Source of the DNA: Patescibacteria group bacterium
GTDB lineage: Bacteria > Patescibacteriota > Minisyncoccia > Phycocordibacterales > Phycocordibacteraceae
Length of the DNA stretch: 60,775 nucleotides
Direction: 5' to 3'
Assembly (NCBI GenBank): GCA_038062175.1
Contig: JBBTXR010000007.1
Coordinates: 1 to 60,775, forward strand
In this document: in pieces, positions 374 to 32,259 of the stretch
How the letters are laid out: each line of letters starts with the position of its first letter
How positions within the stretch are numbered: the first letter of the stretch is position 1
The notes under the pieces: model-generated
Database searches by the model: none
Seen by the model: the letters and a program-made list of their open reading frames with translations, nothing else
What the model was told of the DNA's origin: nothing
Translations under genes and position numbers: made by a program

Positions 374-2026
374 ATGGCAAAGGCAGGACATAAATACATT
401 TTCGTCTTGGGCGGCGTGATGAGCGGCGTCGGCAAAGGTATCGCAACATCCTCGATGGGACTCATCCTTAAGGAGCGTGGATACGAGGTGAACCTTGTGA
501 AGGTGGATCCGTACTTGAACGTGGACGCCGGCACCATGAATCCAACCGAGCATGGCGAGACGTTTGTGCTCTCCTCAGGGCTTGAGACTGATCAGGACAT
601 GGGTAACTACGAGCGCTTCCTCGGACGTGATCTTGGTAGTCAGGACTACATGACCTCCGGCATGGTGTACCAGTCCGTAATTAACCGTGAACGGGCACTT
701 GAGTATGGTGGTCGGTGCGTAGAAGCGATACCACATGTACGTGACGAGATCCTTCATCGCATTGAAACTGCTGCGGACCATAATGGCAGTCAGATCTCCG
801 TGATTGAGATTGGTGGAACGGTCGGAGACTTCCAGAACGCACTCTTTATTGAGGCGGCACGTGTGATGAAGCTGAAGCATCCGAGCGATGTAGTGTTTGT
901 CATGGTGTCGTACCTCCCAGTCCCTTCGACCTTGGGTGAGATGAAGACGAAGCCGACCCAGAGCGCCGTGAGGGAATTGAACTCGTACGGTGTACAGCCC
1001 GATTTCATTCTTGCGCGAAGTAAAACTCCTATGGATGCCAAGCGCAAAGAGAAGCTTGCGATCTGGTGCAACGTGCTCCCTGAGCGCGTGATCTCCGCAC
1101 CAGATGTTGAGAGTATCTATGATGTGCCACTGAATTTTGAGAAGGACAATCTTGGTGACCTGCTTCTGGATGCGCTCTCGCTTTCAAAGGAGAAGACCGC
1201 TGACTTTACGGAGTGGAAGGAGTTTGTGGACCGTACGAAGCTTGAGAAACCAGTGGTGAAGATTGGTATCGTTGGAAAGTATTTTGATACCGGTGACTAC
1301 GTGCTCTCCGATGCCTACCTCTCGGTCATCGAGGCTATCAAGTTCTCGGCAGCTACCGTTGGCGTAAAGGCGGTCATTGAATGGGTGAATGCAAAGCAGG
1401 TTGAATCAAGCAAGGATGCCGAGAAGCTCGAGCAGTACGACGGCATCATCGTTCCCGGAGGCTTTGGTGAGACTGGCATCGAAGGCAAGATCAAGTCTGC
1501 AGAATACGCACGTAACCATCGCATTCCATACTTTGGTCTCTGCTATGGCATGCACATGCTCGTGATTGAGTATGCGCGTAATATCCTCGGACTTGAGGGA
1601 GCACACACTGTTGAGATCGATCCAAATGCCGCACATCCAGTCATTGACGTGATGCCTGATCAAAAGGCTTTGATTGCAGAAGGGAAGTACGGTGGCACCA
1701 TGCGACTTGGAACGTATCCTTGTGACCTTGGGACAGGTACTATCGCACAGGAAGCGTATGGAACCAATCAGGTTGATGAGCGCCATCGCCATCGCTATGA
1801 GGTGAATCCTGAATACATTGAGCAGCTCGAGAAGAAGGGTCTGGTGTTCTCTGGAAAGTCTCCTGACGGAGTGCTTATGGAGATCGCTGAGCTACCAAAG
1901 AGCGAGCATCCGTTCTATCTCGGTTGCCAGTTCCATCCGGAACTTCAGGCGCGTCCGCTCACGCCGCATCCGTTGTTTACAAAATTTCTCGAGGCGGCAC
2001 TCAAGAGGAGTGAGCTCAAGGCATAA
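374..2026 (+). CDS. pyrG: CTP synthase
   Basis: 550 aa. N-terminal KYIFVLGGVMSGVGKGI synthetase motif and C-terminal glutamine amidotransferase (GLCYGMH, HRHRYEVN). Confidence 0.95.
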   Translation: MAKAGHKYIFVLGGVMSGVGKGIATSSMGLILKERGYEVNLVKVDPYLNVDAGTMNPTEHGETFVLSSGLETDQDMGNYERFLGRDLGSQDYMTSGMVYQSVINRERALEYGGRCVEAIPHVRDEILHRIETAADHNGSQISVIEIGGTVGDFQNALFIEAARVMKLKHPSDVVFVMVSYLPVPSTLGEMKTKPTQSAVRELNSYGVQPDFILARSKTPMDAKRKEKLAIWCNVLPERVISAPDVESIYDVPLNFEKDNLGDLLLDALSLSKEKTADFTEWKEFVDRTKLEKPVVKIGIVGKYFDTGDYVLSDAYLSVIEAIKFSAATVGVKAVIEWVNAKQVESSKDAEKLEQYDGIIVPGGFGETGIEGKIKSAEYARNHRIPYFGLCYGMHMLVIEYARNILGLEGAHTVEIDPNAAHPVIDVMPDQKALIAEGKYGGTMRLGTYPCDLGTGTIAQEAYGTNQVDERHRHRYEVNPEYIEQLEKKGLVFSGKSPDGVLMEIAELPKSEHPFYLGCQFHPELQARPLTPHPLFTKFLEAALKRSELKA

Positions 2027-4959: not shown

Positions 4960-5418
4960 CTAGCGCGGCTCGATACTCTCGAGCTTCGCCTTCATCCAAT
5001 CGATCTCGGCCTGTTGACCGGAGAGGATGTTGGCACAGAGCTCATGGATCTGCGGATCAGTAAGATCCGCCTTTTCACACATAAGAATGGCCCCGGCGTG
5101 GTGTGGAATCATTGATCGTAGGAACTGCTCGTCACCAATCGCCGTTTGCTCACGGATAAAGAGATACGAAGTAGCAAGAAGGAGGATACCGAACGCAATA
5201 AGAACCAGGTTCCATTTCTTATTAGGGTACATAGATTTCATGAGCCACAGCTCAAGGATGAGCATGGGTGACGCCATAAGCGCAGCCATATAGAGCTGAT
5301 TGTGATTTGGTAGTGCATTCGCAGCGGTATTCACCATCGCATACATAAGCACGTACATGGCAACAAGATGCAGTGCGAACATAAGGAGAAGGCGCCCGTA
5401 GTTTTTTGTGTGATCCAT
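4960..5418 (-). CDS. DUF305-domain membrane protein
   Basis: 3 N-terminal TM helices plus MIPHHAGAILMCEKA...GQQAEIDWM (the DUF305 His motif). Divergent from csoR. Confidence 0.7.
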   Translation of the reverse strand: MDHTKNYGRLLLMFALHLVAMYVLMYAMVNTAANALPNHNQLYMAALMASPMLILELWLMKSMYPNKKWNLVLIAFGILLLATSYLFIREQTAIGDEQFLRSMIPHHAGAILMCEKADLTDPQIHELCANILSGQQAEIDWMKAKLESIEPR

Positions 5419-5445
5419 ACCTATACGATAGCTCTGATGAGCGTA

Positions 5446-5473
5446 TTGACACTATACCCCCAGGGGGTATTAT
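5446..5473 (+). promoter_or_regulatory. csoR promoter with a CsoR-type operator in the spacer
   Basis: TTGACA (5446-5451), 16-nt spacer, TATTAT (5468-5473), then ATG 6 nt later. The 17-nt palindrome ATACCCCCAGGGGGTAT (5454-5470) matches the GC-cored CsoR operator type. Confidence 0.75.
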
Positions 5474-5479
5474 GGGTAT

Positions 5480-5746
5480 ATGAAAACGGAAGCAAAGAAA
5501 CAGGTGCTTAATCGTTTGAGTCGGATAGAAGGGCAGGTGCGGGGGCTGAAGAAGATGGTTGAAGAGGATACGTACTGTGTCGATGTTATTACGCAGACGT
5601 CTGCGGTGAAGCGTGCGCTCTCAGGAGTGGAGGATCAGCTACTTGAAAGTCATCTCGCCACGTGTGTCGTCGGTCAGATGAAAAAGGGGCAGCACGATAA
5701 GGCGACGAAGGAGATATTAAAGGTGTACGCACTTAAACGCGCATAA
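5480..5746 (+). CDS. csoR: CsoR-family Cu(I)-sensing repressor
   Basis: 88 aa. LNRLSRIEGQVRGL helix and the C-H-C ligand fingerprint (YCVDV ... ESHLATC). Confidence 0.85.
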   Translation: MKTEAKKQVLNRLSRIEGQVRGLKKMVEEDTYCVDVITQTSAVKRALSGVEDQLLESHLATCVVGQMKKGQHDKATKEILKVYALKRA

Positions 5747-5747
5747 T

Positions 5748-6200
5748 ATGGAGCACAATCACGGACAGTCACTCAACCAGTTAGCCTTCAGTGCTACGCT
5801 TCATTGTCTTACCGGGTGTGCCACCGGCGAAGTGCTCGGTCTGGTCATTGGTACCGCGCTTGGATGGGGTGCCGGACAGACCATCGTGCTCGCGGTAGCA
5901 CTCGCATTTCTTTTTGGCTATATGTTCACCATGATCCCGTTGTTGCGACATGGCATGACGCTTGGAGCAGCACTTGGGCTAGCACTCGCATCAGATACTG
6001 CCTCTATTGCGATCATGGAAGTGGTGGACAATGCGGTCATGCTGCTTATCCCAGGCGCCATGACGGCAGGGCTTGTAAGCCCGGTGTTCTGGGGGAGTAT
6101 GGTGATCGCGCTTGCGGTAGCCGGTATATTCGCTTTCCCGGTGAACCGCTGGCTGATTGCGAGAGGGAAAGGGCATGCGCTTGTGCACGCTCATCATTAA
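5748..6200 (+). CDS. DUF4396-like membrane protein with a TM1 Cys motif
   Basis: SATLHCLTGCATGEVLGLVIGTALGW plus 4 TM helices. Starts 1 nt after the csoR stop. Confidence 0.65.
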   Translation: MEHNHGQSLNQLAFSATLHCLTGCATGEVLGLVIGTALGWGAGQTIVLAVALAFLFGYMFTMIPLLRHGMTLGAALGLALASDTASIAIMEVVDNAVMLLIPGAMTAGLVSPVFWGSMVIALAVAGIFAFPVNRWLIARGKGHALVHAHH

Positions 6201-6219
6201 GAACTACTAACTCACTACT

Positions 6220-6600
6220 ATGGATACAAAGATTCTTCTCGTCGCGCTTATCGCCCTTGTTATTGGTGTAGGTGGCGGGTACGCGCTCGCCGCGAACAAG
6301 ACGCCCGATCAACACATGATGGCAAACGGCAACATGATGCATGGCTCTATGCATAGCGGCATGCAGGGCGAGATGGAGGGTATGATGGCTGGTCTTGCAG
6401 GAAAGACAGGAGATGACTTCGATAAGGCCTTTCTTGCCGAAATGATCATGCACCACGAAGGGGCGGTTGATATGGCGGAGGCAGCGCTCCGAGACGCTAA
6501 GCATGCTGAGATTAAACAGATGGCGAATGCGATCATCGCTGCTCAGACGACTGAAATAAACCAAATGAAGCAGTGGCAGGAGGCGTGGTACGGACGATAA
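6220..6600 (+). CDS. Secreted or anchored DUF305 protein with a Met/His-rich segment
   Basis: N-terminal anchor, HMMANGNMMHGSMHSGMQGEMEGMMAG, then the DUF305 core MIMHHEGAVDMA...QTTEINQMKQW. Confidence 0.75.
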   Translation: MDTKILLVALIALVIGVGGGYALAANKTPDQHMMANGNMMHGSMHSGMQGEMEGMMAGLAGKTGDDFDKAFLAEMIMHHEGAVDMAEAALRDAKHAEIKQMANAIIAAQTTEINQMKQWQEAWYGR

Positions 6601-6615
6601 TACTTTCTTTTTCAG

Positions 6616-6642
6616 AAAACCGCCGTAAAGAAGCGGTTTTTT
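6616..6642 (+). terminator. Rho-independent terminator of the copper operon
   Basis: AAAACCGC / GCGGTTTT stem followed by a T-run. Confidence 0.7.
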
Positions 6643-6709
6643 GATTGCGTAGGTTCTAATCTTGCTCGACGCTCACCGCCAGAGCTTGCTGTCGCGGTAT
6701 AATATGCAG

Positions 6710-8170
6710 ATGAAGAGTTCATTATTATCGCGGAGCAAGCGCCGTCCGACTGAACCGTTGGTTGTGCATGATATCGCTATGACAGGACCAAAGGTGCTGA
6801 GTCTGCGTACAGAGCGACCCGCACTACTCTCCCGTATCTGCCGGTATGCAGCGCTCCATAAGCGACTCGTGTCGCTGCTCCTGTGTGCCGCGATAGTCAG
6901 CGGAAGTTTCGGTTTATATAAGACAGGCGCACAGGCACAGTCTTCGACCTACTTCGCAAGTTCCTGTCTTGGGGGTTGGGAGAATACGTCGCTGGCCGAG
7001 GGAGAACCCGATGTGCGTGGTCTGTTGGATGAGCATAACTCAGCGCTGCTTTCCGGGGATCGACAGGCTCAGATCTTCTGTAGCGGGTTTGCAGGAGAGA
7101 TCCCAGAAGGGTCAACGCATACGGGCGTGCGTGCGCACATATCATGGCAGACACGGCAGGTTGATCCTCCCGCAACGACCACTATCGTTGCCGACGAGTC
7201 GTTTGAATCAGCTGCGATAGAAATAATCGACCTCACTGAGGACGAGCCTGCGGTCATCGAGCTTCCGATTACGGAACCCGTTGAGGTTGAGAGCGTACCG
7301 GGTACTGATCACGTACCAGACGAAGCGGTCGAGTCTGTCGTAGAGGAATCCGACCCCGTTGAAGCAGAATCTGCTGCAGACGAACCTGCTCCTTCTGAAG
7401 CAGAACCTGCTGCAGAGACTTCGGCCTTCATCCGATACATCCTTCCGCGTGCTCATGCGCAGGAGCTTGAAGAGGGTGCATCTACGACAACTGAAGCCTC
7501 AGCAGTCTCGACCGCTTTCTTCGAAGTGCTCTACACCCTTGATGGTGTGGTGTGGCATTCACTCGGCCTCGTTGAACAGGTAGACGGAGACAGCTCGTTT
7601 GAGATCCCCATTTCCGAATTCACATCAGTCGATGATCTCTCGGAACTCCAGCTTGCCGTACATACGCTTCCGACCGTCGAAACCCGTACAGATGTGCTTC
7701 TTGATGCAATGTGGGTGGAGGTGGAGTATACGGGCGGACTTGCGCCTCTCGAGGAGCTTCTCACTCCGATTGAGGATGTCCTCATTACTCCGGCGGCTAC
7801 AGTGCTTTCTATACGCATCTTCGATAAGGAGATTATCATCGACGCTCGCGCTGCCCACGGGTGCGAGGCAGAGACATTTCGAGTAGATATGTCGCATGAA
7901 AGGACTCGGGACGCGCGTATCTTGCTCTCTGGAAGCGCGGGAGAGGGCGCAGAGCTTGAGATAGGAGCGCTACCGCAGGGTATCGATATCAGGTTTGCAG
8001 CCACCAATGAGTACGTCTATCGCCCCGCTTCAGGTGAAGAGACGGTCGAGCTCACGCTCGCAAATGAGCGAGGAGCACAAGAGGGAGACTTCACGGTACC
8101 TATCATCTATACCCGTCAGGAGCCGGAGCAGTCCTCGGTCATCTGTCAGATTAATATTGTGAATCAATGA
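6710..8170 (+). CDS. Envelope operon protein P1: membrane-anchored, with an acidic Pro/Glu-rich linker
   Basis: Basic N-terminus, one TM (LVSLLLCAAIVSGSFGLY) and the acidic tract ESVVEESDPVEAESAADEPAPSEAEPAAE. TATAAT (6698-6703) lies 6 nt upstream of ATG 6710; an alternative ATG is at 6704. Its stop overlaps the P2 start (ATGA). Confidence 0.55.
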   Translation: MKSSLLSRSKRRPTEPLVVHDIAMTGPKVLSLRTERPALLSRICRYAALHKRLVSLLLCAAIVSGSFGLYKTGAQAQSSTYFASSCLGGWENTSLAEGEPDVRGLLDEHNSALLSGDRQAQIFCSGFAGEIPEGSTHTGVRAHISWQTRQVDPPATTTIVADESFESAAIEIIDLTEDEPAVIELPITEPVEVESVPGTDHVPDEAVESVVEESDPVEAESAADEPAPSEAEPAAETSAFIRYILPRAHAQELEEGASTTTEASAVSTAFFEVLYTLDGVVWHSLGLVEQVDGDSSFEIPISEFTSVDDLSELQLAVHTLPTVETRTDVLLDAMWVEVEYTGGLAPLEELLTPIEDVLITPAATVLSIRIFDKEIIIDARAAHGCEAETFRVDMSHERTRDARILLSGSAGEGAELEIGALPQGIDIRFAATNEYVYRPASGEETVELTLANERGAQEGDFTVPIIYTRQEPEQSSVICQINIVNQ

Positions 8171-10059
8171 GCGGGAAACGAGCGATAATCTCTGCGGTCA
8201 CCCTCATACCACTTACTGCGTGGCTGTTTTTAGCATGGCCGGAACTTTTCTCATTTCCGCCTGCGCCCCCGCCTGCGTTCGCCGCAACACTGACCTATGT
8301 GGGAGGAGCGGAAGCGAGCGGCAACAGTGCGTCATTCAACGTATCGCTCACCTCGCTTGCCGGTGGAAGTGGGAGTGCTGCGATCGAAGGCGATCTTGTC
8401 ATCGTGTCATCGGGATTTGTATCGACCGCAAACGGCAATCCGGGAGTGAGCACGTCAGGATTTGCTGAGCTCAATGACCTCTATGCTAACGATACGCGCG
8501 ACGCGAACTTCTCGGTGAGCTGGAAACTCATGACGAGTTCTCCGGACACGACCGTTGCCTGTAACGGGAGCGGTTCGGCAACCAACGGAGCGGTATGCGT
8601 CGTGCATGTATGGAGGAATGTCGATCAGACCACGCCCTTCGATGTTGCTTCCACATCGGTTGCCACAACGAATTCAGCGGCGCCCAACAGTCCCTCGATA
8701 GCGCCGACCACGGCCGGTGCGATCGTTATCGCAACGGGTCTTGGAACTGGCGCAGCGGATGATGCTGCGGTGACAGCACCGGCCGGATACGGCAATCAAG
8801 TGGATATCAGCGTTGACCCCGGAAACTCAGCAATCGTGGGCATTTCCTCGAAGGCGTGGGTCTCGGGTGCTGAGGATCCTGCGGCATGGACGAACTGGAC
8901 CACCTCCACCTCCGACTCCTACGCAGCGTTCACGCTTGCGCTTCGTCCGGCAGGGAATACCACCTACACGCAGTCCGCGTACCGCTGGTTCGCTAATACG
9001 AATGCAACCGATGTGGGTACTGCACTCGAGACCCAAGATGTTTCAGCATCGCTTTCAGCCGATGGCGAGGCATTTCGCCTACGCATGCTCTTGCATGTAG
9101 CAACAGCGAACCTATTCGCAAGCGGGCAGAACTTTAAGCTGCAGTTCGCAGAGCGTTCTGGCACCTGCGACACGGCGTTCTCAGGAGAGACCTACGCGGA
9201 TGTTACTGGGGCTACGGCGATTGCGTATAGTACCGCTAACACCGCTGCCGATGGTGACAATCTCACCTCAAATGCCAATGATCCGACGCACAGCGGGCAT
9301 ACGATTGTGAATCAGGACTATGAGGAGGCAAACAATTTCACCAACACGGTCGGTACCATCGTCTCAGGGCAGGACGGTAAATGGGACTTCTCACTCATCG
9401 ACAACAGTGCTCCGGACAATACCACCTACTGCTTTCGCGTCGTGAAGTCCGATGGTTCGGTGCTCGACAGTTATTCTGTCGTTCCCCAGATCACGACTTA
9501 TAATCCGACCTCCCTTACCTTTGTCGTGAGTCATGTTGATTTTCCTACGATTGCACCAGGTACGCCTTCGCATGCAACGACGACACTCTCGGTGGACACA
9601 ACGGATCCTAACGGCTGGAACGTCATTCTCTCGGGAGATGACCAGGGTACGAGCAACACGGTTATGGATCTTTCAACCGATGCAGCAGTCGGGATTACCG
9701 ATCAGACTGAGTGGATACCTGGGTCCGCGACCACCTCACCAGGGAATGCGGTGCGCATCAGCTCTTTTGATAGCGGAGGGGACGTCCTCGCGTTCCGCGT
9801 CATGACGGCGTCCGGAACACCCCTGTTCCGTGCTCCTACGTGGTGGGGAAGTACCGATACCTATGTGGATGCTGCGACCACACTTTGGGCCGGTATTGCG
9901 TCGTCGACGGCAAGTAATAAGAAAATAGGAGAATCGAGCGAAGACTCGGGAGGGGTACCGGTGCTTTCGAGTGTTCTGTATTACCTCGATGTACCAACCA
10001 GTCAACCGGTAGGTTCGTATAGTGGGGCACTGACCTACACTGCAACAGTGAATCCTTAA
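8167..10059 (+). CDS. Envelope operon protein P2: large secreted protein with a C-terminal WxL-like domain
   Basis: 630 aa. N-terminal anchor or signal, two unassigned beta-rich domains, and a C-terminal 180 aa paralogous to P3 (GWNVILSG ... GSYSGALTYTATVNP). Confidence 0.6.
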   Translation: MSGKRAIISAVTLIPLTAWLFLAWPELFSFPPAPPPAFAATLTYVGGAEASGNSASFNVSLTSLAGGSGSAAIEGDLVIVSSGFVSTANGNPGVSTSGFAELNDLYANDTRDANFSVSWKLMTSSPDTTVACNGSGSATNGAVCVVHVWRNVDQTTPFDVASTSVATTNSAAPNSPSIAPTTAGAIVIATGLGTGAADDAAVTAPAGYGNQVDISVDPGNSAIVGISSKAWVSGAEDPAAWTNWTTSTSDSYAAFTLALRPAGNTTYTQSAYRWFANTNATDVGTALETQDVSASLSADGEAFRLRMLLHVATANLFASGQNFKLQFAERSGTCDTAFSGETYADVTGATAIAYSTANTAADGDNLTSNANDPTHSGHTIVNQDYEEANNFTNTVGTIVSGQDGKWDFSLIDNSAPDNTTYCFRVVKSDGSVLDSYSVVPQITTYNPTSLTFVVSHVDFPTIAPGTPSHATTTLSVDTTDPNGWNVILSGDDQGTSNTVMDLSTDAAVGITDQTEWIPGSATTSPGNAVRISSFDSGGDVLAFRVMTASGTPLFRAPTWWGSTDTYVDAATTLWAGIASSTASNKKIGESSEDSGGVPVLSSVLYYLDVPTSQPVGSYSGALTYTATVNP

Positions 10060-10117
10060 TCGATCAGGTGGGGACAACAAAGCGCATGAATAGTTTTATA
10101 TACTATATAGTGACTAT

Positions 10118-10795
10118 ATGAATTCTTCATTTACGTTGCGAGACGTGCGAGCATTCCTTGCGGCGCTCATCATCACGACGCTCCTTTTTAGTTCGTTCTA
10201 TGCCTATCGTGCGCATGCTGAGGCAGTCACCCTCTCAGTGACCGTTTCTTCAGCACTTACCTTTACTACCTCAACCGATCAATTCGGCAGCATTTCTCCG
10301 GGCACGTACAAGATTGCAACAACGACCCTCTCAGTGACCACCAACAATGCCGCGGGCTGGAACATTACGCTCTATGGCGATAATCAGGGAACGTCCGATA
10401 CGGTACTTGATCTTGCAACCGATGCGGCAGTTGGGATTACCGATCAGACTGAGTGGGTTCCGGGAGCTGCAACGACCACAACGGGAAATGCTGTAGTGCG
10501 AGCATCGCTCGATAACTCTGCAGACGTTCTGGCGTTCCGCGTCATGACTGCTTCTTCCACCAACGGTACTTCCTTCCTTGCGCCATCGTGGTGGGGAACC
10601 ACCGACGCCGATGGCACGGCAAAGTTTGCCGGTATAGCCTCTAGCACCGTACAACGCCAGATCGGAAATGCCGGTACTGGCTCCTACAGTGCTTCTGCAC
10701 ACATCAATACCGTGCAGTACTATCTCGACGTTCCGGCATCTCAGCAGACGGGCTCGTACGACGGCGGTCTGACCTATACCGCGACCGCAAACTAG
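10118..10795 (+). CDS. Envelope operon protein P3: small secreted WxL-like protein (candidate major subunit)
   Basis: Signal peptide ending AHA-EA. GWNITLYG and the C-terminal GSYDGGLTYTATAN resemble the two WxL motifs. It has its own TATAGT hexamer (10106-10111) 6 nt before the ATG. Confidence 0.6.
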   Translation: MNSSFTLRDVRAFLAALIITTLLFSSFYAYRAHAEAVTLSVTVSSALTFTTSTDQFGSISPGTYKIATTTLSVTTNNAAGWNITLYGDNQGTSDTVLDLATDAAVGITDQTEWVPGAATTTTGNAVVRASLDNSADVLAFRVMTASSTNGTSFLAPSWWGTTDADGTAKFAGIASSTVQRQIGNAGTGSYSASAHINTVQYYLDVPASQQTGSYDGGLTYTATAN

Positions 10796-10811
10796 GGTGT
10801 ATAGTCTCCCC

Positions 10812-11729
10812 ATGGATATAAAGAGGACTCTGGGGTGCGCACTCCTCCTCGGAGTTCTTGCCGGGCCACTCGCGCTCTCTGCCGCTAGTACCGGACTTAC
10901 GATTCAGCCGGTGAAGATCTCGCACACCCTTGAGAAGGGTCAGTCGATCACCGGCTCCATATCACTTTCCAATGCGTCGGAGGAGGCGGTGAAAGTTGAA
11001 GTTAAGATTGAAGATTTTATCCCGAATGCCGGTGGAGACGGCGTAAAGTTTGTATCGCGCGCAGAGGGACTTACAACCGTACGCGACTGGATTACCCTCA
11101 ATGGGGGAACAGCAGAACTCACCCTTCAGAAGGGAGAGCAGACAAGCATACCGTATACCATTAATGCGCCGCAAAATGCAGAGCCTGGAAGTCACCTCGG
11201 CGTGGCCTTTTTCAAGGCAATTAATCTTGCCGACGCAGACAAGCAGCTTAAGGTGGGTACGCAGGTAGGTACGCTCATCTTCGTCACCGTTCCCGGCAAC
11301 TATCTCCAAAAGGGGCAGATACTTGAATTCAAGGGTCCGTTGTTTGCGCAAAGCGCACCGATTTCTTTCACGACCAAGTTTGAGAACACGGGCACGGTGC
11401 ACTTTGAACCGAAGGGAGTCATCAAGATCAAGAATCTCTTCGGTAAAACCATTGCAGAAGTTCCGGTAGAAGGTCAGGTGGTACTCCCAACCGGCATCAA
11501 GGATCTTACGACTGTATTTGCAACTGAGTCATTCCTGCTCGGTCGGTATGTCGCATCGATCGAGCTGCGCGACGGAGAAGGGAGTCTCCTCTCTGCCAAG
11601 GATCATGCGTTTTACGTGTTCCCTGTCTGGTACACGCTTGGATTTATCGCACTGCTCCTCGGACTATTCTTTGGGTTCAGACTCCTTGCATCCCGTGTAC
11701 ATATAAGCGTGAATCTTAAAGGCGAGTGA
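10812..11729 (+). CDS. Envelope operon protein P4: DUF916/DUF3324-like surface protein with a C-terminal TM anchor
   Basis: Signal peptide, then LTIQPVKISHTLEKGQSITGSISLSNASEEAVKVEV...APQNAEPGSHLGVAFF (DUF916-like). A second beta domain follows, then the TM LGFIALLLGLFFGF. The start could also be GTG 10797. Confidence 0.55.
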   Translation: MDIKRTLGCALLLGVLAGPLALSAASTGLTIQPVKISHTLEKGQSITGSISLSNASEEAVKVEVKIEDFIPNAGGDGVKFVSRAEGLTTVRDWITLNGGTAELTLQKGEQTSIPYTINAPQNAEPGSHLGVAFFKAINLADADKQLKVGTQVGTLIFVTVPGNYLQKGQILEFKGPLFAQSAPISFTTKFENTGTVHFEPKGVIKIKNLFGKTIAEVPVEGQVVLPTGIKDLTTVFATESFLLGRYVASIELRDGEGSLLSAKDHAFYVFPVWYTLGFIALLLGLFFGFRLLASRVHISVNLKGE

Positions 11730-11732
11730 TGA

Positions 11733-12707
11733 ATGAAAACGGTCTGCGGCCTCCTTCTTCTCGCGATCATTTTAATTCCCGCATCGGTCTATAGCGAGAG
11801 CACTGTCCTCTCGGTTACCGTGGTTGCACTCCCGCAATGCCAGGATGGTATCGATAATGATGGCGACACCCTCATCGACTACCCGCTTGATCTGGAGTGT
11901 GACACAGCTATCGATACGACCGAGAGCGTGGCTCCGCCACCAACGTCGAGTGGTGGGGGAGGAGGAGGGGGGAGCTCAAACTCAAACACCCAAGTCGCGT
12001 TTCGTGGAAAGGGATATCCGGGCAGCACGGTAACTATTCTCAAGGATGCGCGAATTGCCGCGTCCACGACTGCATCGCCCGATGGAGGATTCGATGTGAC
12101 GATAAAAGGACTCGCAGCAGGCACCTATACCTTTAGTGTGTATGGCACTGACTCTCGGGGTGTTCAGTCAGCCACCCATACGTTCACAGTAAGTCTGACT
12201 AATGGTGTCACAAACATCATTACTGGTATTTTTTTGCCACCCACCATCTCGTTGAACAAGAAGGAGGTTAAATATGGCGATGTCATACAAGTGCTCGGGC
12301 AGACGACTCCTTATGCGGAAGTGACCATATTTGTGAACTCTGCCCATGAGGTCGTAAAGAAGCTGCAGGCAGATGCGCAGGGGGCATGGCTTCTTAACTT
12401 CGATACTACAGAGATTGAGCGAGGGAATCACTCAACCCAGTCACGTGCGGCAAAGGCGGGAGAGATTAGTCCTCTGTCCAGGGCGCTTGAGTTCAAGGTT
12501 GGTGCGCAGAACATTTTCGCCGAAGATGTACGTACGGGGTGCACTACGTCAGATGCAAACTGTGATGGTCGTGTGAACTTGGTCGATTACTCGATACTTG
12601 TGTACTGGTTTAAGAGGAGTAATCCACCAGTAAGTGCCGATCTCAATGGTGATGGGGCAGTGACTATTATCGATTTCTCAATCATGGCATACAACTGGAA
12701 CGGCTAA
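11733..12707 (+). CDS. Envelope operon protein P5: secreted Ig-like repeat protein with a C-terminal dockerin
   Basis: Signal peptide, Ca-binding-like CQDGIDNDGDTLIDYP, a poly-Gly linker and two Ig-like modules. The C-terminus DANCDGRVNLVDYSILVYWF...DLNGDGAVTIIDFSIMAYNW is two dockerin type-I repeats. Confidence 0.7.
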   Translation: MKTVCGLLLLAIILIPASVYSESTVLSVTVVALPQCQDGIDNDGDTLIDYPLDLECDTAIDTTESVAPPPTSSGGGGGGGSSNSNTQVAFRGKGYPGSTVTILKDARIAASTTASPDGGFDVTIKGLAAGTYTFSVYGTDSRGVQSATHTFTVSLTNGVTNIITGIFLPPTISLNKKEVKYGDVIQVLGQTTPYAEVTIFVNSAHEVVKKLQADAQGAWLLNFDTTEIERGNHSTQSRAAKAGEISPLSRALEFKVGAQNIFAEDVRTGCTTSDANCDGRVNLVDYSILVYWFKRSNPPVSADLNGDGAVTIIDFSIMAYNWNG

Positions 12708-12708
12708 T

Positions 12709-13563
12709 ATGCGTACACTCATCCTCCTTATCTTCGGGTTCTGCATTCCACTTTCAGTCTCTGCTGCCACGGTATCGTTTGAACCACAGGCAAGTACGGC
12801 GGGCATAGATGGACCGTTTGTTATTGCGGTAAATCTCTCTGCAGATACCTATATAAACGCGCTCGATATACGCCTCATGGTTCCGCATTCACTTGAACCT
12901 ATCGATGTGTCCGATGGCAATTCCATCATTAATCTTTGGCTGGAGGAACCACACTTCGATGAGACTACGCGAATTCTTTCTTTTTCGGGCATTATTCCCC
13001 AGGGATTTATGGGCGAGCAGGGACGTCTTCTTACGATCACCATGCGGCCAGCTCTCTTAGAGAGTAGTGCGGAGCTAGAGCTCGATCCGGTAAGTGCTGC
13101 GTATGCAGGGGAGGGTGAGAAGGTTGCTCTTACCGCACTATCACTGAAGCTCCCGGTGGTTGCAACGCGCGGAAATATTGCAAACCCGATTCCGGACACT
13201 GATCCCCCCGAAGCATTTACGCCGATAGTGGTGCGAGAAGAACATCTCTATGAAGGAGCTCCAGTACTTTTGTTCTCTACGGTAGATAAGGGTTCTGGCA
13301 TTGCACGATATGAAGTGAAGGAGAGCTGGTTTGGAAATGTCTTCCCCTCTACTGGCTGGCGTTTGGCAACGAGTCCCTATCCGCTCCGCGATGGTGAACG
13401 AGCGAGCCATATTTATGTACGGGCCATCGACAAGACAGGTAACAGCAGTGTGGAGCATATGCAGCCTGAGCGAATACCGACCGTTATGTATGTTGTGCCG
13501 CTTATCGCCATACTTTCCATGCTAGTGTTTTGGTATGTTCGCCAGATGCGCGCTCGTCGTTAG
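12709..13563 (+). CDS. Envelope operon protein P6: cohesin-like domain protein with a C-terminal TM anchor
   Basis: Signal peptide, the cohesin-like segment VSFEPQASTAGIDGPFVIAVNLSADTYINALDIRLMVP...GRLLTITMRP, the shared motif DKGSGIARYEVKE, and the C-terminal TM VVPLIAILSMLVFWYV. Confidence 0.55.
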   Translation: MRTLILLIFGFCIPLSVSAATVSFEPQASTAGIDGPFVIAVNLSADTYINALDIRLMVPHSLEPIDVSDGNSIINLWLEEPHFDETTRILSFSGIIPQGFMGEQGRLLTITMRPALLESSAELELDPVSAAYAGEGEKVALTALSLKLPVVATRGNIANPIPDTDPPEAFTPIVVREEHLYEGAPVLLFSTVDKGSGIARYEVKESWFGNVFPSTGWRLATSPYPLRDGERASHIYVRAIDKTGNSSVEHMQPERIPTVMYVVPLIAILSMLVFWYVRQMRARR

Positions 13564-15250
13564 TCTCGTTGTGCTAGGAAGTATTCCATTACCGTTGTTT
13601 GCGGCGAGCCTCGATCTGTCTGGATCCGGTGGAGCGGTGGGTAGTACTATTTCCGTTCCAGTACGAGTGTCAGCAGGGAACGGCGAGTCACTCAATGCCG
13701 TATCTGCGCATATCGTATTCCCTCCAGATAAGCTCTCACTCGTGTCAGTTTCAAAGACGGGAAGTATCATCACGCTCTGGGCGCAGGAACCAACCTACTC
13801 CAATACTGCGGGCACCGTGTCGTTTGAAGGGGTCGTTCCGAATCCCGGTTACGCAGGACAGGGAGGCATGCTCGTCACGCTCTCGTTTCGGGTGCGTGCA
13901 CCAGGCACGGCAACACTTTCATTTGCGGGCTCCTCAGTGCTTGCCAATGACGGACAGGGTACCGAGATACTACGAAGCGCAACATCCCGCGTCTTTGCTC
14001 TTACGCAGACAGCCGCGCTCGAGACATCAGCACCAGTTCAAGCAGTTGCTCCGACGTCTGTCGTATCATCTGGTTTCCTGGTCAAATCACTTACGCACCC
14101 GGAACAGGATGCGTGGTACCGCGAGACAACCGGCTCATTTTCATGGCAGCTGCCGGAGGGGGTAACGGCGACCCGTCTTTTGCTGAGCAGAAATCCTTCA
14201 TCAGTACCGAGTGTGGTGTATGACACCCCACTCTCCTCAAAGACCATCGAGGGCATGCCCGAAGGCACCTCCTATCTTCTCGTGCAGCATAAGGTGGCTG
14301 GCGAGTGGGGTGCCATCGGACGGTACCGTATTAATATCGACACGACTCTTCCAAAGTCATTCCGCATCGTATTTCCTCATGGAGAGTCTGATGTGAATCC
14401 TCAGCCCATTATTCTTTTCAATACAATCGATACCGGATCAGGAATCGAACGGTATGAGGTGAAAATCGGCGACGGAGGATCGCAGCGCATGGCAGCCGCA
14501 GCCGATTCTAATCCCTATACGCTGCCGCTGCAGGAACCTGGCAGTCATGTCGTAACCGTTATTGCGTACGATGCGGCGGGTAATACGCAGACCGCGAGCG
14601 CTGAATTCTTCATCGAGGGCATTGATGCACCGATCATTACCTACTATCAGAGCGTTATTGAAGGAACTGATCTCGTGAAGGTGCGCGGTACTACCTATCC
14701 GAATTCAGATATAAACGCATACATTTATGAGGACGCTGAGCTCGTAGCTGAGGAATTCACTCGTAGCAATACACTCGGAGACTTTGCGTTCGTGGTTGCG
14801 AAGCGACTTACGCCAGGAACGTACAGTGTGACTGCGCGCGTTACCGATGCGCGTGGTGCACGAAGCGCAGAATCGGAACCGGTCACCGTTGTCATCAAGA
14901 GCAAGTTCCTCAGAGAGTTCGGCGACCTCGCGATCAATCATCCGCTCATTATCTCGATACTTGCGCTCATCCTGCTCGGTCTCGTGATAGCAGGGGTACT
15001 TGGAGTGTGCGCAGTCACCGGTGCATGCCGAAAGCTTCCGTCGATCTTCGGAAGAACAGAGAAGGTAACGAAGCGCTCGTTCGCACACCTCAAGCGGGAT
15101 CTGTCAGACCACTTAAAGGGATTGCACTCCCGGGGTACCTCGCATGGCCTCACCAAAGAGGAACTGCTTCTTCTCAAGCAGCTCCGCAGTGATCTCGATA
15201 AGGTTGAACGTGTTTTAGGAGGGAAGATCAAGGATGAGGACGGCTCGTAA
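13535..15250 (+). CDS. Envelope operon protein P7: cohesin-domain protein with an Ig-like module, a TM and a cytoplasmic tail
   Basis: Signal peptide, the cohesin-like segment GSTISVPVRVSAGNGESLNAVSAHIVFPPDKLSLVSV...GMLVTLSFRVRAPGTATLSF, then DTGSGIERYEVK. It carries an Ig-like module related to P5, a TM, and a 75-aa charged tail. Overlaps P6 by 29 nt. Confidence 0.6.
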   Translation: MFARCALVVSLVVLGSIPLPLFAASLDLSGSGGAVGSTISVPVRVSAGNGESLNAVSAHIVFPPDKLSLVSVSKTGSIITLWAQEPTYSNTAGTVSFEGVVPNPGYAGQGGMLVTLSFRVRAPGTATLSFAGSSVLANDGQGTEILRSATSRVFALTQTAALETSAPVQAVAPTSVVSSGFLVKSLTHPEQDAWYRETTGSFSWQLPEGVTATRLLLSRNPSSVPSVVYDTPLSSKTIEGMPEGTSYLLVQHKVAGEWGAIGRYRINIDTTLPKSFRIVFPHGESDVNPQPIILFNTIDTGSGIERYEVKIGDGGSQRMAAAADSNPYTLPLQEPGSHVVTVIAYDAAGNTQTASAEFFIEGIDAPIITYYQSVIEGTDLVKVRGTTYPNSDINAYIYEDAELVAEEFTRSNTLGDFAFVVAKRLTPGTYSVTARVTDARGARSAESEPVTVVIKSKFLREFGDLAINHPLIISILALILLGLVIAGVLGVCAVTGACRKLPSIFGRTEKVTKRSFAHLKRDLSDHLKGLHSRGTSHGLTKEELLLLKQLRSDLDKVERVLGGKIKDEDGS

Positions 15251-17130: not shown

Positions 17131-17504
17131 AGTTAGACGCTGTTGGCGTGCCGAGCAGTAATCTTCAGAGAAGCATCGAATTCTATAGCCTTCTCGGGTT
17201 CACGTTCCATGCATATACCGACCAGTCACATATCGAGGCAGTCTCGAAAACGGGAGAAGTGCGCCTCATGCTTGATGCTGTTTCTGTGGTTGTGGATATC
17301 CTCGGCCATGCTCCTGTGCCTGCCAACTACTCTGTGTTCGCCCTACGCTACGATTCTCCTCATGAAGTAGATGAGATAACGAGATTGGCGTTCGCCGCCG
17401 GTTTCACGTTAGTAAAAGAGCCGTGGAATGCGGTCTGGGGTCAGCGGTACGCAATCATGAAGGATCCAGATGGAACCCTCATAGATCTCTTCGCAACGCT
17501 CTAA
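17127..17504 (+). CDS. Glyoxalase/bleomycin-resistance (VOC) family protein
   Basis: 125 aa with the VOC pattern (IEFYSLLGF ... DPDGTLIDLF). Overlaps the upstream stop by 4 nt. Confidence 0.7.
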   Translation: MKLDAVGVPSSNLQRSIEFYSLLGFTFHAYTDQSHIEAVSKTGEVRLMLDAVSVVVDILGHAPVPANYSVFALRYDSPHEVDEITRLAFAAGFTLVKEPWNAVWGQRYAIMKDPDGTLIDLFATL

Positions 17505-17575
17505 CAAGCACCTCATACAGCGCCGCCGAGAAAGTGGTGGATATACTTAGTGACGAACCAACTCACTGTCACTTC

Positions 17576-20500
17576 ATGTACAAAATCTTCCTCTCGCTTC
17601 TTGTCGCCCTTCTTCTTTTCGTTCCTGCCACAAGTCAGGCTGTCACCCTCACCCAGGACCTTACGGCGGGTTCTAAGGGAGCTGAGGTTACCCAGCTCCA
17701 ACTCATCCTCTTCCAGTTCGGCTATTCAACTGCTGCACCAAGCGGTGTCTATGCCGATACAACTGCTGCTGGGGTGCGCGCGCTCCAAAAGAAGTACGGC
17801 CTTCCGGAGTCGGGTGTAGTAGATCAACGCGTACGCAATCTTCTCAACCCATTCATTTCTCGGAACCCGCTATCGGGTACAGCAAAACCATCGGTATCAA
17901 ACGCACCGAGTTTTTCGACATCGGTACCACTTTCGCTTGGAGCGTCAGGCTCAGCGGTGTTCGAGCTTCAACGCAAACTCGCGGCCCTCGGTTATTTCTC
18001 AGAGACCCCAACAGGGTACTTTGGTCAGGTCACTCGTGCAGCAGTCATTGCACTTCAAGCTGCACGCGGTCTTGAACAAGTTGGATATGTTGGCCCGCGT
18101 ACAAGTGCAGCACTTGTCGAGTCATCATCAGGTTCAGTTGCGACAGCGCAACCATCGCAGACAGTCTCTACTCCTGTACCGCCAACCACGACTAGTGGAA
18201 GCGGAATTAAACCAACGCTCACATTTCGTATTGATCGAAAGTTTGCAGCAGCCGGTGATTCTATTCAACTTACTTGGTCTGCAAAACGTGCAGAAAGTTG
18301 TAGCGCATCTAGTGGCTGGTCAGGAGAGAGGGGGGTGAGAGGATCGGAATCGATTACTGTTTCGGGTAATGCTACCTACACCCTCACGTGTACTAGTTCG
18401 TCAGGCGGTACGATCTCAAAATCAGTATGGGTATCAACAACACTCGTCGCACGGAAGGTGGAGGATAAAGAAGATATTGTCGAGACACCGGTCATCGTTG
18501 TTACTCCAACTCCGACTACCCCGACTCCGGAGCCTGTCCCTACTATTGATCCAACAGATAAGACCCGTCCATCTATAGGCTCTATTCTCGTTCCAAAGGC
18601 TACGCTCACCAATAGCGGCATGGTTGTTGCTTGGACAACGAATGAACCTGCCACTACCGTTGTTGAGTACGGTACTACCGTGGCGTACGGACAAACCGTA
18701 TCGACACCCGGCTACAGAACAAGCCATCAACAGACAATTTCCGGTCTCCTGCCTTCGACTACCTACCACTTCCGTGTGAAGTCGGTTGATGCATCGGGCA
18801 ATGCTGCTCAATCACTCGATCGTTTCCGCGATACCCTTGCAGGTTCGATTGCTACACCGACCCCAACCCCAACCCCAACCCCTACACCCACTCCGACACC
18901 AACGCCTACCCCAGAACCGATTCCTTCTGGTCTCGACACATACTATGTGGACTTCGCATCTGGTGCAGATACCAATCCAGGTACTATGACGTCTCCATGG
19001 AAGCATGCGCCAGGTGACCCGAACGCTACCGGTAACCCAGCGAAGGTGGCACTGAAGAGCGGCAATACGATCCAGTTCAAGGGAGGTGTCGTCTATTACG
19101 GACAGATCTCAACCAAGGCTGCAGGTGTCACATATCGTGGCTCTGGGTGGGGAACAGGCAAGGCGATCATCGATGGTTCGCAGCCGGTTACGGGTCTTCG
19201 TAAGTGCGTCTCAGTTGCTGACTGTGCAGGGAATCCAAATTGGCAGCGTATCTATCGCACCACAGTCACTCTTCCAAGTCACATTACAGAATCACCAGCG
19301 CACAACCTTCATCTCATGCGTGGACTCGACCGCATGACGGTTGCGCAGCAGCCAGCTTCTACGAATAAGTACTATCAGGCGTACGAGAACTTCTACACCA
19401 TCCAGCCTGCACAGATATCGAAGACTTCGCTCACCGATTCACGGCTCGCCTCTCTTGGCGGTTCAAATCTCATTGGATCCACCGTTCATGTTTGGGGTCA
19501 GCCAAATGAGATAATCCCTCGTAAGATCACTGGTTACAGCAACGGCACCATAACGTTCGCATCGCTCACGCCCTACACCAATCGGAACTCGCTCTACGCG
19601 ATCTCGAACAACGCAAGCGGAGCCATCTTCGACACACCTGGAGAGTACTACTTCAATTCTTCCACCAATGAGCTCTACATCATGCCGTATGCTGATTCAG
19701 ATGTGGCGGGAGGCACCATCACCATGGCATCGAGCCCGTATGGTTTCAACCTCAATACCCACGAAAACATCACCATCGATGGATTCATTATCCGCAAGCA
19801 CGCAGGTGACGGCGGTCGCGAGGGTCAGGGTATCGTGAAGTACACCACCGGCTCAGCCGGAGGATACGTCATCAGTAATAACGAAGTCGCATACAGCTAC
19901 TCACCGCAGAAGGGCGGCGCCATAGGTCTCCTGGGAGCAGCGGACAACACAATCATCCGCGACAACTACGTGCATGATATCGGCGGTAACATGCGTGGCA
20001 TCTCGGTGACTGGCGAGGATGTTCTCATAAAGAATAATCACGTGAAGAATGTTGCGCGAACCGCCATCTTCTTCGGCGAAATGACGGACGGCACTATCGA
20101 CGGTAACTATATCGAGGATAATAACTCGGCCCACGGTAACGGTATGTCCGTCTATCAGAACTCCAAGGACATCACGATCTCGAACAACCGCATCGTGCGC
20201 TCGAATATTCCGTTCACGATGGAGCAATCATCAAATATCACCATCTTCAACAATGTGTTTGTGGGGCCCGGATCGGACAGTCCCGCATTTGCTGATTGGG
20301 GTGGTATGTCAGGGACGAACTACGTCCTCAACAACACCTTCGCGAATGGATACCTTCTTCTCGGTAGTGCGGACAAGAGTGCAACTAACTACACCGTGCG
20401 GAATAACATCATCAACGGCGGCGGTACGAGAGGTCCGAATACTACGTACAGCCACAACATCTACACAGCTCTCATCTGGAACCAAAGTGCTCGATACGGA

Positions 20501-32256: not shown

Positions 32257-32259
32257 AGA

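Follow-up and report, generated by a model that had tools for sequence, protein, structure and literature searches.

What does a tightly packed run of seven envelope-protein genes build on the surface of a bacterium of the Patescibacteria group? The genes, which we call P1 to P7, lie in a 60,775-nucleotide stretch of contig JBBTXR010000007.1 (GenBank assembly GCA_038062175.1); "the window" here means the whole of this 60.8-kb stretch. Their homologues are found among the Parcubacteria, the largest branch of the candidate phyla radiation (CPR) and also the least understood one, whose attachment to hosts and surfaces is poorly understood and of which, to our knowledge, no member is in pure culture. 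A preliminary description, made from the DNA letters alone, saw in the cluster an anchor (P6/P7), an adaptor (P5) and a fibre or coat (P2/P3/P4). The module assignments reported below support this logic overall for P6/P7, P5 and P2/P3, and we conclude that the cluster probably encodes a Parcubacterial form of the CPR pilus of Pam type, with its base tethered by a cohesin-dockerin pair. The pilus core deserves more confidence than this reading as a whole, and the anchor step somewhat less. Direct support comes from the homology of the parts, the fold of P4, the domain content, the gene order, a strand motif common to P3 and P5, and a helix-or-dockerin pattern among related loci.

The Pam pilus has been described for Candidatus Mycosynbacter amalyticus and other CPR bacteria, together with cryo-electron microscopy (cryo-EM) structures of two of its pilins, in which the linker is a donated strand (Troman et al., bioRxiv 2026, 10.64898/2026.03.03.709456). 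The same preprint predicts that PamC and PamD are membrane-anchored chaperones resembling PapD and FimC, and it reports a tip subunit, PamT, and an RbmA-like membrane-anchored terminator, PamR, whose extra N-terminal strand is modelled as inserting into the last pilin. It makes no mention of cohesin, dockerin, WxL or Parcubacteria.

Recurrence of the cluster

A profile of P4 was used to scan one genome per species, which gave 79 loci, and protein look-ups added five more. We defined a close set of 49 non-redundant loci with a P4 identity of at least 43% and made each count over the loci with enough flanking sequence. A gene with the C-terminal domain shared by P2 and P3 stood directly upstream of P4 in 41 of 42 loci, and two such genes lay upstream in 32 of 35. 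P5 lay downstream of P4 in 37/40 loci, P5 was accompanied by a cohesin gene in 30/33, and both P6 and P7 were present in 28/33. The order P2 to P7 is kept in about 30-40 Parcubacteria genomes. The preliminary description had left its grouping of the genes to a check on whether their homologues lie together in other genomes; recurrence of the same order in 49 non-redundant related loci shows that the cluster is not a chance arrangement.

Median identities to the window proteins were 57% for P3, 52% for P4, 51% for the C-terminal domain of P2, 45% for P5, 39% for P7 and 33% for P6. P3 thus ranks highest in conservation within the cluster, which is what a shaft subunit that assembles with itself should show. 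It has 440 homologues, and all the named ones are from Parcubacteria or Patescibacteria; named homologues of P3 and P4 include Kaiserbacteria, Sungbacteria, Taylorbacteria, Adlerbacteria, Ryanbacteria and Portnoybacteria. The nearest locus is on a contig of Kaiserbacteria (P4 70% identical), which NCBI places in the Parcubacteria group.

Beyond the close set are distant loci, with P4 identities of 26-32%, whose record titles include Saccharibacteria, Saccharimonadales, WWE3 and others; these group names are the titles themselves (many read "uncultured Candidatus Saccharibacteria"), not set against phylogeny. Here the layout is a giant protein with a similar C-terminal motif, a P4-like protein, a pilin of about 350 residues, a second P4-like protein and a P5-like protein. 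We refer to these loci as pam-like and to their pilins as PamB-like.

A pilin-type domain common to P2 and P3

Residues 449-629 of P2 and 46-225 of P3 were 58% identical (E = 2e-58). The small and large protein with a common C-terminal domain seen in the preliminary description are therefore real. The resemblance of that domain to WxL surface proteins did not hold up, as Pfam WxL (PF13731) was matched by none of 81 proteins searched (36 homologues of P3 at E <= 1 and 45 large proteins at E <= 0.001). Mature P3 consists of a linker and this domain only, with no N-terminal domain. When 1.84 billion representative proteins were searched with a P3 profile, 219 clusters were found, and of the 150 that were listed, essentially every complete protein had the domain at its extreme C-terminus. 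The listed proteins were either about 200-245 residues long or much larger, up to 3569 residues, and the large ones carried beta-propeller, LamG, fn3, WD40 or BNR domains ahead of the C-terminal domain, which look like binding heads.

A different family proved to be informative. All 36 aligned homologues of P3 matched, below its cut-off, the NCBIfam model CPR_Pam_pilin_C (NF058581, "Pam pilus system pilin subunit"; best E = 5.9e-7), and two of them also matched the PamT model. The pilins of about 350 residues in the distant loci matched NF058581 up to 2e-8, and their relatives reached 3.5e-9, again under the curated cut-off. In a profile-profile comparison with hhalign, 132 C-terminal domains of the P2/P3 family aligned with 149 PamB-like sequences of linker plus domain at a probability of 98.2% (E = 4.4e-14, 153 columns), from the linker (P3 LSVTVSSALTFTT versus VQLTIDPTLTFTV) to the last strand (TGSYDGGLTYTATA versus AGTYQTTLIYTVVS). 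A first run with smaller alignments had given 96.1%, and the controls, one reversed and ten column-shuffled, gave at most 1.6%. Sequence searches of the PDB with P2, P3 and profiles of the P3, P4 and PamB-like families returned nothing useful from a copy that did not include the Pam structures. Taken together, the family and profile matches place the C-terminal domain of P2 and P3 with the C-terminal domain and linker strand of CPR Pam-type pilins, and P3 is likely to be the major fibre subunit.

A strand motif at the N-termini of P3 and P5

The first residues of mature P3, EAVTLSVTVSSALTFTT, are nearly invariant in its family and align with the linker V.LTVdPtLtF of the PamB-like pilins. In the monomer model of P3 this strand fell below 50 in predicted local distance difference test score (pLDDT) and was left unplaced. 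A strand that is conserved yet unplaced is expected if it pairs with another subunit. The mature N-terminus of P5, ESTVLSVTVVAL, carries the same kind of strand, and in the window the two have L-x-V-x-V in common. In the families of the close loci we scanned the stretch immediately behind the signal sequence for the five-residue pattern L-x-[VI]-x-[VI], x being polar (a seven-residue pattern was too strict). It was present in 27/41 homologues of P3 and 26/41 of P5, against 0/49 for P4, 0/29 for P6, 1/38 for P7, 0/19 for P2 and a background of 1% in 30-residue windows. P5-like proteins of the distant operons likewise begin with such a strand, and in P2 a related linker, PQITTYNPTSLTFVV, precedes the C-terminal domain. 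The motif common to P3 and P5, recognised by pattern in their predicted mature N-termini, is a new finding of this analysis.

P4 as a candidate assembly chaperone

The AlphaFold2 monomer model of P4 (pLDDT 87.7) began with a signal helix, followed by two beta-sandwich domains and a helix at the C-terminus. A Foldseek search of the PDB placed it closest to 9i1y, a WxLIP of Enterococcus faecium (4.6e-11), followed by 9i25, a WxLIP bound to a long WxL protein (8.8e-11), RbmA (1.2e-9) and then the pilus chaperones CfaA, Caf1M, FimC, SafB and CsuC (1e-9 to 1e-7). The Pfam domain WxLIP_PGBD (DUF916) matched P4 with E = 7.6e-5 and 23.2 bits, just under its cut-off of 27.3, and matched 25/41 of its homologues at E <= 0.1; WxLIP_HBD (DUF3324) gave no match to P4 in the Pfam scan. 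The earlier proposal that P4 resembles the DUF916/DUF3324-type partner protein of WxL loci thus has support from both the sub-threshold PGBD match and the best structural matches.

When the P4 family was aligned by hhalign with 47 chaperones of the distant operons, the match ran over the full length, transmembrane (TM) helix included (100%, E = 4e-60), and the family aligned with both chaperones of the pam-like operons. Among the 47, WxLIP_PGBD was matched by 38 (best 1.1e-7) and PapD_N by one. These matches tie the Pam-like chaperones, too, to WxLIP, a connection made neither in the preprint of Troman et al. nor in what our literature search returned. P4 is more likely to be an assembly chaperone than a component of the fibre or coat, the role it had in the preliminary description.

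The C-terminus of P4 (11607-11729) was found to end in a short basic tail, [RK]F[LI]K.[RK][VI].[IF]S[VI], which follows the TM helix and is kept across Parcubacteria; the distant chaperones carry another conserved tail, RKR...A..L.G.

The likeness to WxLIP raises the alternative of a static platform of the WxL type, in which P2 and P3 would be held on the cell wall through their shared domain, P4 would be the permanent membrane-anchored partner that stabilises them, and P5-P7 would form a separate tether or spacer. WxL clusters of Lactobacillales and Bacillales combine one small and one large WxL protein with a WxLIP (DUF916-DUF3324-TM), a hairpin of which is predicted to insert into the WxL domain (Hassan et al. 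2023, PMC10599100). A platform would account for P4 having its best structural match in WxLIP, with one of the entries bound to a WxL protein, for a layout of small, large and partner protein that is published for WxL clusters as a peptidoglycan-bound platform, and for the strong conservation of the TM helix and tail of P4. It would, however, leave the conserved N-terminal strand of P3 and P5 with no role, and it does not sit well with P3 being more conserved than P4 or with a P2/P3 domain that aligns with Pam-type pilins, seen as filaments by cryo-EM in the preprint, and not with Pfam WxL. We therefore regard a static platform as unlikely.

A dockerin, two cohesin proteins and the proposed anchoring of the base

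P5 has two Ig domains (Pfam Big_6, 1.2e-10) and ends in a two-repeat dockerin (Dockerin_1, 4.5e-7; 30.4 bits against a cut-off of 22.9) whose repeats are the sole ones in the window; the NCBIfam PamR model did not match it. The cohesin of P7 also passed its Pfam cut-off, and its nearest PDB entry was 4uyp_A, a cohesin of a cellulosomal anchoring scaffoldin (E = 5e-4). P7 further has an OmpL47-type domain (NCBIfam, 3.6e-7) and an Ig module in common with P5 (E = 3e-5). P6 had no Pfam match of its own. Two modules, including the aligned motif VDKGSGIARYEVK / IDTGSGIERYEVK, are shared by P6 and P7, and their families aligned by hhalign at 100% (E = 2e-44), so that in these comparisons P6 is clearly a short paralogue of P7. 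The dockerin, the cohesins of P6 (through its homology to P7) and P7, the Ig-like module of P5 and P7 and the motif of P6 and P7 had all been named in the preliminary description, and all were recovered. The last 75 residues or so of P7 (residues 498-571; 15026-15247) form a charged cytoplasmic tail that is probably helical and is conserved to residue 567 in several loci; it may serve in regulation or connect to a partner in the cytoplasm.

Related loci differ in how the P5-like protein ends. In eight distant loci it ends in a membrane helix of its own, and none of the eight has a cohesin gene downstream. In six others it ends in a single dockerin-like loop, CDLNxDGxCNxxDFSxLLYY, and all six have a cohesin gene, whose product carries N-terminal membrane helices and a weak Pfam cohesin match. 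Of three further variants of the loop, two come with a cohesin gene and the third (L064) does not. Among close loci with a dockerin-ended P5, 29/30 have a cohesin gene. Fisher's exact test, done by hand on the distant helix and dockerin-like rows, gave p ~3e-4. One helix-ended protein, from a locus titled Saccharibacteria, weakly matched the PamR model (8e-5). Nothing else in the analysis speaks as strongly for joint action of the P5 dockerin and the P6/P7 cohesins as this either/or co-occurrence, which also indicates, as far as gene content can, that the pair stands in for a membrane helix. The pattern of exchange is new here.

The same pattern bears on a second alternative, in which P2-P4 would make a Pam-like fibre and P5-P7 an independent cohesin-dockerin surface display that merely neighbours it. 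Cohesin-dockerin pairs exist outside cellulosomes in many bacteria and archaea, and P5 has no match to PamR, both of which would suit such a display. Against independence, P5 comes after the chaperone gene in 37/40 loci, with genes that overlap or nearly touch; P5-like genes occupy the same position in the pam-like operons, with a TM helix in place of the dockerin; P5 has the N-terminal strand motif of P3; the window holds no other dockerin; and helix and dockerin/cohesin exclude each other. Two unrelated neighbours are in our judgement improbable. Still less credible is a cellulosome-like display of polysaccharide-degrading enzymes. Both the cohesin and the dockerin pass their Pfam cut-offs and the nearest PDB cohesin is cellulosomal, but no glycoside hydrolase, carbohydrate-binding module (CBM) or other enzyme was found in the cluster with Pfam and NCBIfam, and the only dockerin of the window is on a non-enzymatic protein with Ig domains. 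We consider this last alternative very improbable.

P1 and the large subunit P2

Relatives of P2 range from about 340 to 2086 residues, and conservation is confined to the C-terminal domain. P1 had no Pfam or NCBIfam match and was present in 7/49 loci, at about 30% identity. In two relatives a P1-like region forms the N-terminal part of a giant open reading frame (ORF) that ends in the shared C-terminal domain (L005, 3682-9942, 2086 residues; L019, 1174-7131, 1985 residues). In the window the two parts are encoded apart, by P1 and P2, with an ATGA overlap between the genes and a separate signal peptide on P2. Because P1 is fused to the large subunit in two relatives and rare otherwise, it is best seen as a detachable, accessory module of that subunit and not as a core part, in which respect the preliminary description, which listed it alongside P2-P7, is to be amended. 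At some point in evolution the large subunit seems to have undergone a split or a fusion.

Residues 265-444 of P2 have a counterpart inside proteins of 1270-1490 residues in four pam-like loci (L051, L053, L054 and L061, three of which bear Saccharibacteria titles), where the chaperones are just 26-32% identical to P4. This suggests that head domains have been exchanged or shuffled between CPR classes.

A proposed mechanism

We propose that all parts are exported by Sec and that membrane-held P4 would fill the open groove in the C-terminal domain of new subunits and keep them foldable. Subunits would then join head to tail, the strand that precedes the C-terminal domain (EAVTLSVTVSSALTFTT in P3) displacing the chaperone strand from the groove of the previous subunit. 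P3, as a minimal pilin, would make the shaft; P2 would be a large, variable-headed binding subunit, probably distal, with P1 as its accessory module. Growth would stop when P5 inserts its N-terminal strand ESTVLSVTVVAL into the groove of the last P3, and the dockerin of P5 would bind the cohesins of P6 and/or P7, which are predicted to be held in the membrane by their C-terminal helices. The cohesin-dockerin pair would thus do in trans what the membrane helix of the terminator does in the pam-like loci titled Saccharibacteria. The filament itself, the order of its subunits, strand exchange and the binding of P5 to P6/P7 are steps that we infer from the sequences.

Several points weigh against this reading. 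P3 scored 17.4 bits with NF058581, for which the cut-off is 55, and all 36 homologues stayed below that cut-off; the PamB-like pilins of Saccharimonadia were themselves under it, at 30 bits, so the model is narrow. Compared with a narrow set of Saccharimonadia pilins alone, the P3 family aligned weakly (13.9%), and deeper alignments were needed. "PamB-like" is moreover a label given by size, operon context and sub-threshold family matches, and not by comparison with the M. amalyticus proteins: the homologues found with a pilin of one Saccharibacteria-titled locus included no M. amalyticus protein and none named Pam. The monomer model of P3 was of moderate quality (pLDDT 65.6), and its Foldseek matches (FimG, TasA, CfaB, Csu and cannulae) all had E > 1e-3. 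P3 and P4 were modelled as monomers, and, as there is no PamT-like tip subunit, the subunit order is a guess. The window and almost all close loci have a single P4 gene, and many distant loci have two. The chaperone role of PamC and PamD is an AlphaFold-based proposal, and the anchor role in the preprint is likewise a prediction (Troman et al.), while WxL clusters have been modelled as a static peptidoglycan-bound platform and not as a fibre (Hassan et al.).

Should the Pam-type reading nevertheless be true, the Pam pilus reaches beyond the groups of its first report, and cohesin-dockerin pairing, a connector otherwise known from cellulose-degrading complexes, gains a new job in fastening a pilus base to the membrane. 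The helix-versus-dockerin pattern shows how such a tether can evolve. For Parcubacteria the cluster represents a concrete and widely conserved candidate attachment organelle with named parts, built without ATP or sortase.

Gene layout and other features of the window

The ORF listing of the window contains the seven genes, tightly packed on the + strand (Table 1), as the preliminary description had it (same strand, gaps of at most 58 nt, overlaps). Most of its start positions also stand; the exceptions are P1, where position 6698 falls on a Tyr codon and the ATG is at 6704, and P4, placed at 10797 and in public gene calls at 10812. P1 and P2 overlap by ATGA at 8167-8170 and P6 and P7 by 29 nt, and gaps of 1-3 nt separate P4 from P5 and P5 from P6. 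The one sizeable gap in the cluster, 58 nt between P2 and P3 (10060-10117), is AT-rich (TTTTATATACTATATAGTGACTAT) and lies just 5' of P3. An internal promoter, or a strong start of translation for the major subunit, might lie there; a consensus scan listed no promoter-like site in the gap, and promoter and terminator scans inside the cluster were at or near background. A terminator-like hairpin with a T run is the likely 5' boundary of the cluster, and the gene 3' of P7 is on the opposite strand. The sole Rfam match was a distant tRNA.

By hydropathy alone, P1, P2, P3 and P5 each have a single N-terminal hydrophobic segment, and P4, P6 and P7 have an N-terminal one plus a second near the C-terminus, in keeping with the earlier statement that every product has a signal peptide or a TM anchor; signal peptides were assigned by eye and hydropathy. 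The statement that enzymes, ATPases, sortases and ushers are lacking was likewise confirmed, as none of these families was matched when the seven proteins were scanned with Pfam and NCBIfam. Two other kinds of pilus were considered and rejected: a type IV pilin, since a class III leader motif is lacking in P3 and a pilus ATPase in the window, and a sortase pilus, since there is no sortase and no LPXTG motif was noticed on reading the sequences.

Table 1. Features of the P1-P7 cluster and its upstream flank in the window
Feature	Position	Strand	Description	Basis or remark
P1	6704..8170	+	Membrane-anchored; acidic low-complexity region and C-terminal domain	ORF, first ATG 6704, upstream TTG 6662; one hydrophobic segment
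P2	8167..10059	+	Signal peptide, variable heads, linker, C-terminal pilin-type domain	ORF; P2/P3 alignment
P2 head domain (residues 265-444)	8959..9498	+		48-55% identical to giant-protein domain
P2 linker (PQITTYNPTSLTFVV) and C-terminal pilin-type domain (residues 441-630)	9487..10056	+		58% identical to P3
P3	10118..10795	+	Minimal pilin: signal peptide aa 1-34, linker strand aa 35-51, C-terminal domain aa 52-225	ORF
P3 mature N-terminus, EAVTLSVTVSSALTFTT	10220..10270	+	Proposed donor strand	Follows predicted cleavage between AHA and E
P4	10812..11729	+	Two-domain chaperone (proposed): signal peptide, two beta-sandwich domains, C-terminal TM helix, basic tail	ATG 10812, 305 aa in public gene calls; GTG 10797 also open; WxLIP/PapD-like
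P5	11733..12707	+	Proposed adaptor/terminator: signal peptide, N-terminal strand, acidic Cys repeat, Gly-rich linker, two Ig domains, dockerin	ORF
P5 mature N-terminus, ESTVLSVTVVAL	11796..11831	+	P3-type strand motif	Follows predicted cleavage between VYS and E
P5 two-repeat type I dockerin, DANCDGRVNLVDY ... DLNGDGAVTIIDF	12549..12686	+		Pfam; weak match to PDB 2y3n_B
P6	12709..13563	+	Short anchor: signal peptide, cohesin-like domain, small Ig/OmpL47-type domain, C-terminal TM aa 256-272	ORF
P7	13535..15250	+	Long anchor: signal peptide, cohesin, OmpL47-type, Big_13 Ig, TM aa 464-497, cytoplasmic tail	ORF
P7 cohesin (aa 28-143)	13616..13963	+		Pfam, 31.0 bits vs 24.1
Terminator-like hairpin and T run	6622..6637	+	3' of upstream gene	Consensus match only
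His/Met-rich DUF305-like protein	4960-5418	-		Judged from sequence
CsoR/RcnR-like repressor	5480-5746			Judged from sequence
Membrane protein	5748-6200			Judged from sequence
His/Met-rich DUF305-like protein	6220-6600			Judged from sequence

Upstream of the cluster, 4960-6600 holds genes that, judged from their sequences only, resemble metal-homeostasis genes. About 2 kb downstream, on the + strand, lies the gene of another large surface protein (17423-20704; 1093 residues, secreted), with two PG_binding_1 domains, a domain of the purple acid phosphatase N-terminal type, a Thr/Pro linker and a right-handed beta-helix. On the - strand at 29131-33846, an AcrB-family resistance-nodulation-division transporter (1041 residues, E = 6e-182) adjoins an HlyD-type membrane-fusion protein; such parts of a tripartite pump are unexpected if the genome is that of a single-membrane CPR bacterium, as its nearest relatives suggest.

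Some observations concern the surroundings of the cluster in other genomes. In the Sungbacteria loci L001/L002 (130-7047), PilM-like and PilC/T2SSF-like type IV pilus genes adjoin it on the opposite strand; they are absent from the cluster flanks in the window. In L046, two P3-like matches of equal length and identity to P3 (7226-7843 and 8973-9590) flank P4 and no P5-P7 follow; here the cluster has been rearranged or duplicated. No more than about 5 kb separates a CTP synthase gene from the cluster in the window (374-2026, upstream) and in L003 (15520-17331, directly downstream), which may be a remnant of a neighbourhood once shared. The ten flanking ORFs scanned did not show the ATP synthase surroundings that have been reported for pam operons, a scan that included no dedicated search for them.

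Comparison with known systems

Cellulosomes, with anchoring of the ScaC type, resemble the cluster in a two-repeat calcium-loop dockerin and in cohesins on cell-bound proteins. The cluster differs from them in having no enzymes or CBMs, in using TM helices instead of S-layer homology domains or sortase, and in its proposed cargo, the base of a pilus. With chaperone-usher pili (Fim, Pap, Caf1, CFA/I, Csu) it has in common the fold of P4, which is that of periplasmic chaperones (Foldseek 1e-9 to 1e-7), and, in the proposed reading, the subunit logic of an incomplete Ig-like domain with a donated strand and of a tip adhesin built of a head and a pilin domain. Here, however, no usher family is matched, there is no outer membrane, the chaperone is predicted to be membrane-anchored, and the pilin domain is larger (about 175 residues) and not detectably related by sequence.

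The resemblance to WxL clusters extends to the architecture of three proteins: a small one that is the shared domain only, a large one with variable N-terminal binding domains ahead of that domain, and a partner with two Ig domains and a C-terminal TM helix, P4 being nearest to WxLIP structures. The differences are that the P2/P3 domain has neither a Pfam WxL match nor two W-x-L motifs as such, that WxLIP_HBD is not matched, that the host phylum is another, and that WxL clusters have no cohesin-dockerin genes. Since P4 and the Pam-like chaperones are tied to WxLIP, a related mode of assembly is possible for the WxL surface proteins of enterococci, listeriae and lactobacilli. More tentatively, and as a possibility that we do not hold to be the probable one, a modular cohesin-dockerin tether of a donor-strand pilus would have replaced the terminator helix in part of the CPR, and Pam and WxL/WxLIP together would be one old usher-less, chaperone-assisted family of single-membrane bacteria. 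If this joint reading is true, WxL proteins might also be joined by strand exchange.

The closest likeness is to the Pam pilus. Both have secreted pilins with a C-terminal open Ig-like domain that takes the strand of the preceding linker of the next subunit (seen for Pam and proposed here), chaperones of the PapD/FimC type whose membrane helix is C-terminal, a terminator or anchor with an N-terminal strand, and a distribution restricted to the CPR, and neither has an usher, ATPase or sortase; by profile, P2/P3 and P4 are homologous to parts of the pam-like operons. The cluster differs in having one chaperone where Pam has two (PamC and PamD), a P3 without the N-terminal beta-sandwich domain and no PamT-like tip, as none of the seven proteins matches NF058579 (PamT). 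There is no RbmA-like, TM-anchored PamR (NF058578 is unmatched); in its place are P5 and P6/P7, with P5 holding the operon position of PamR, having an N-terminal strand and ending in a dockerin. The host is a member of the Parcubacteria, and all parts score below the NCBIfam cut-offs for Pam. The preliminary description held that no described system has this combination of parts. This no longer applies to the fibre and chaperone half, which is in the 2026 preprint, and still applies to the cohesin-dockerin half, which is not mentioned there. The new elements are a host range in the Parcubacteria, a minimal pilin, a proposed cohesin-dockerin tether with its exchange for a helix, and the link to WxLIP.

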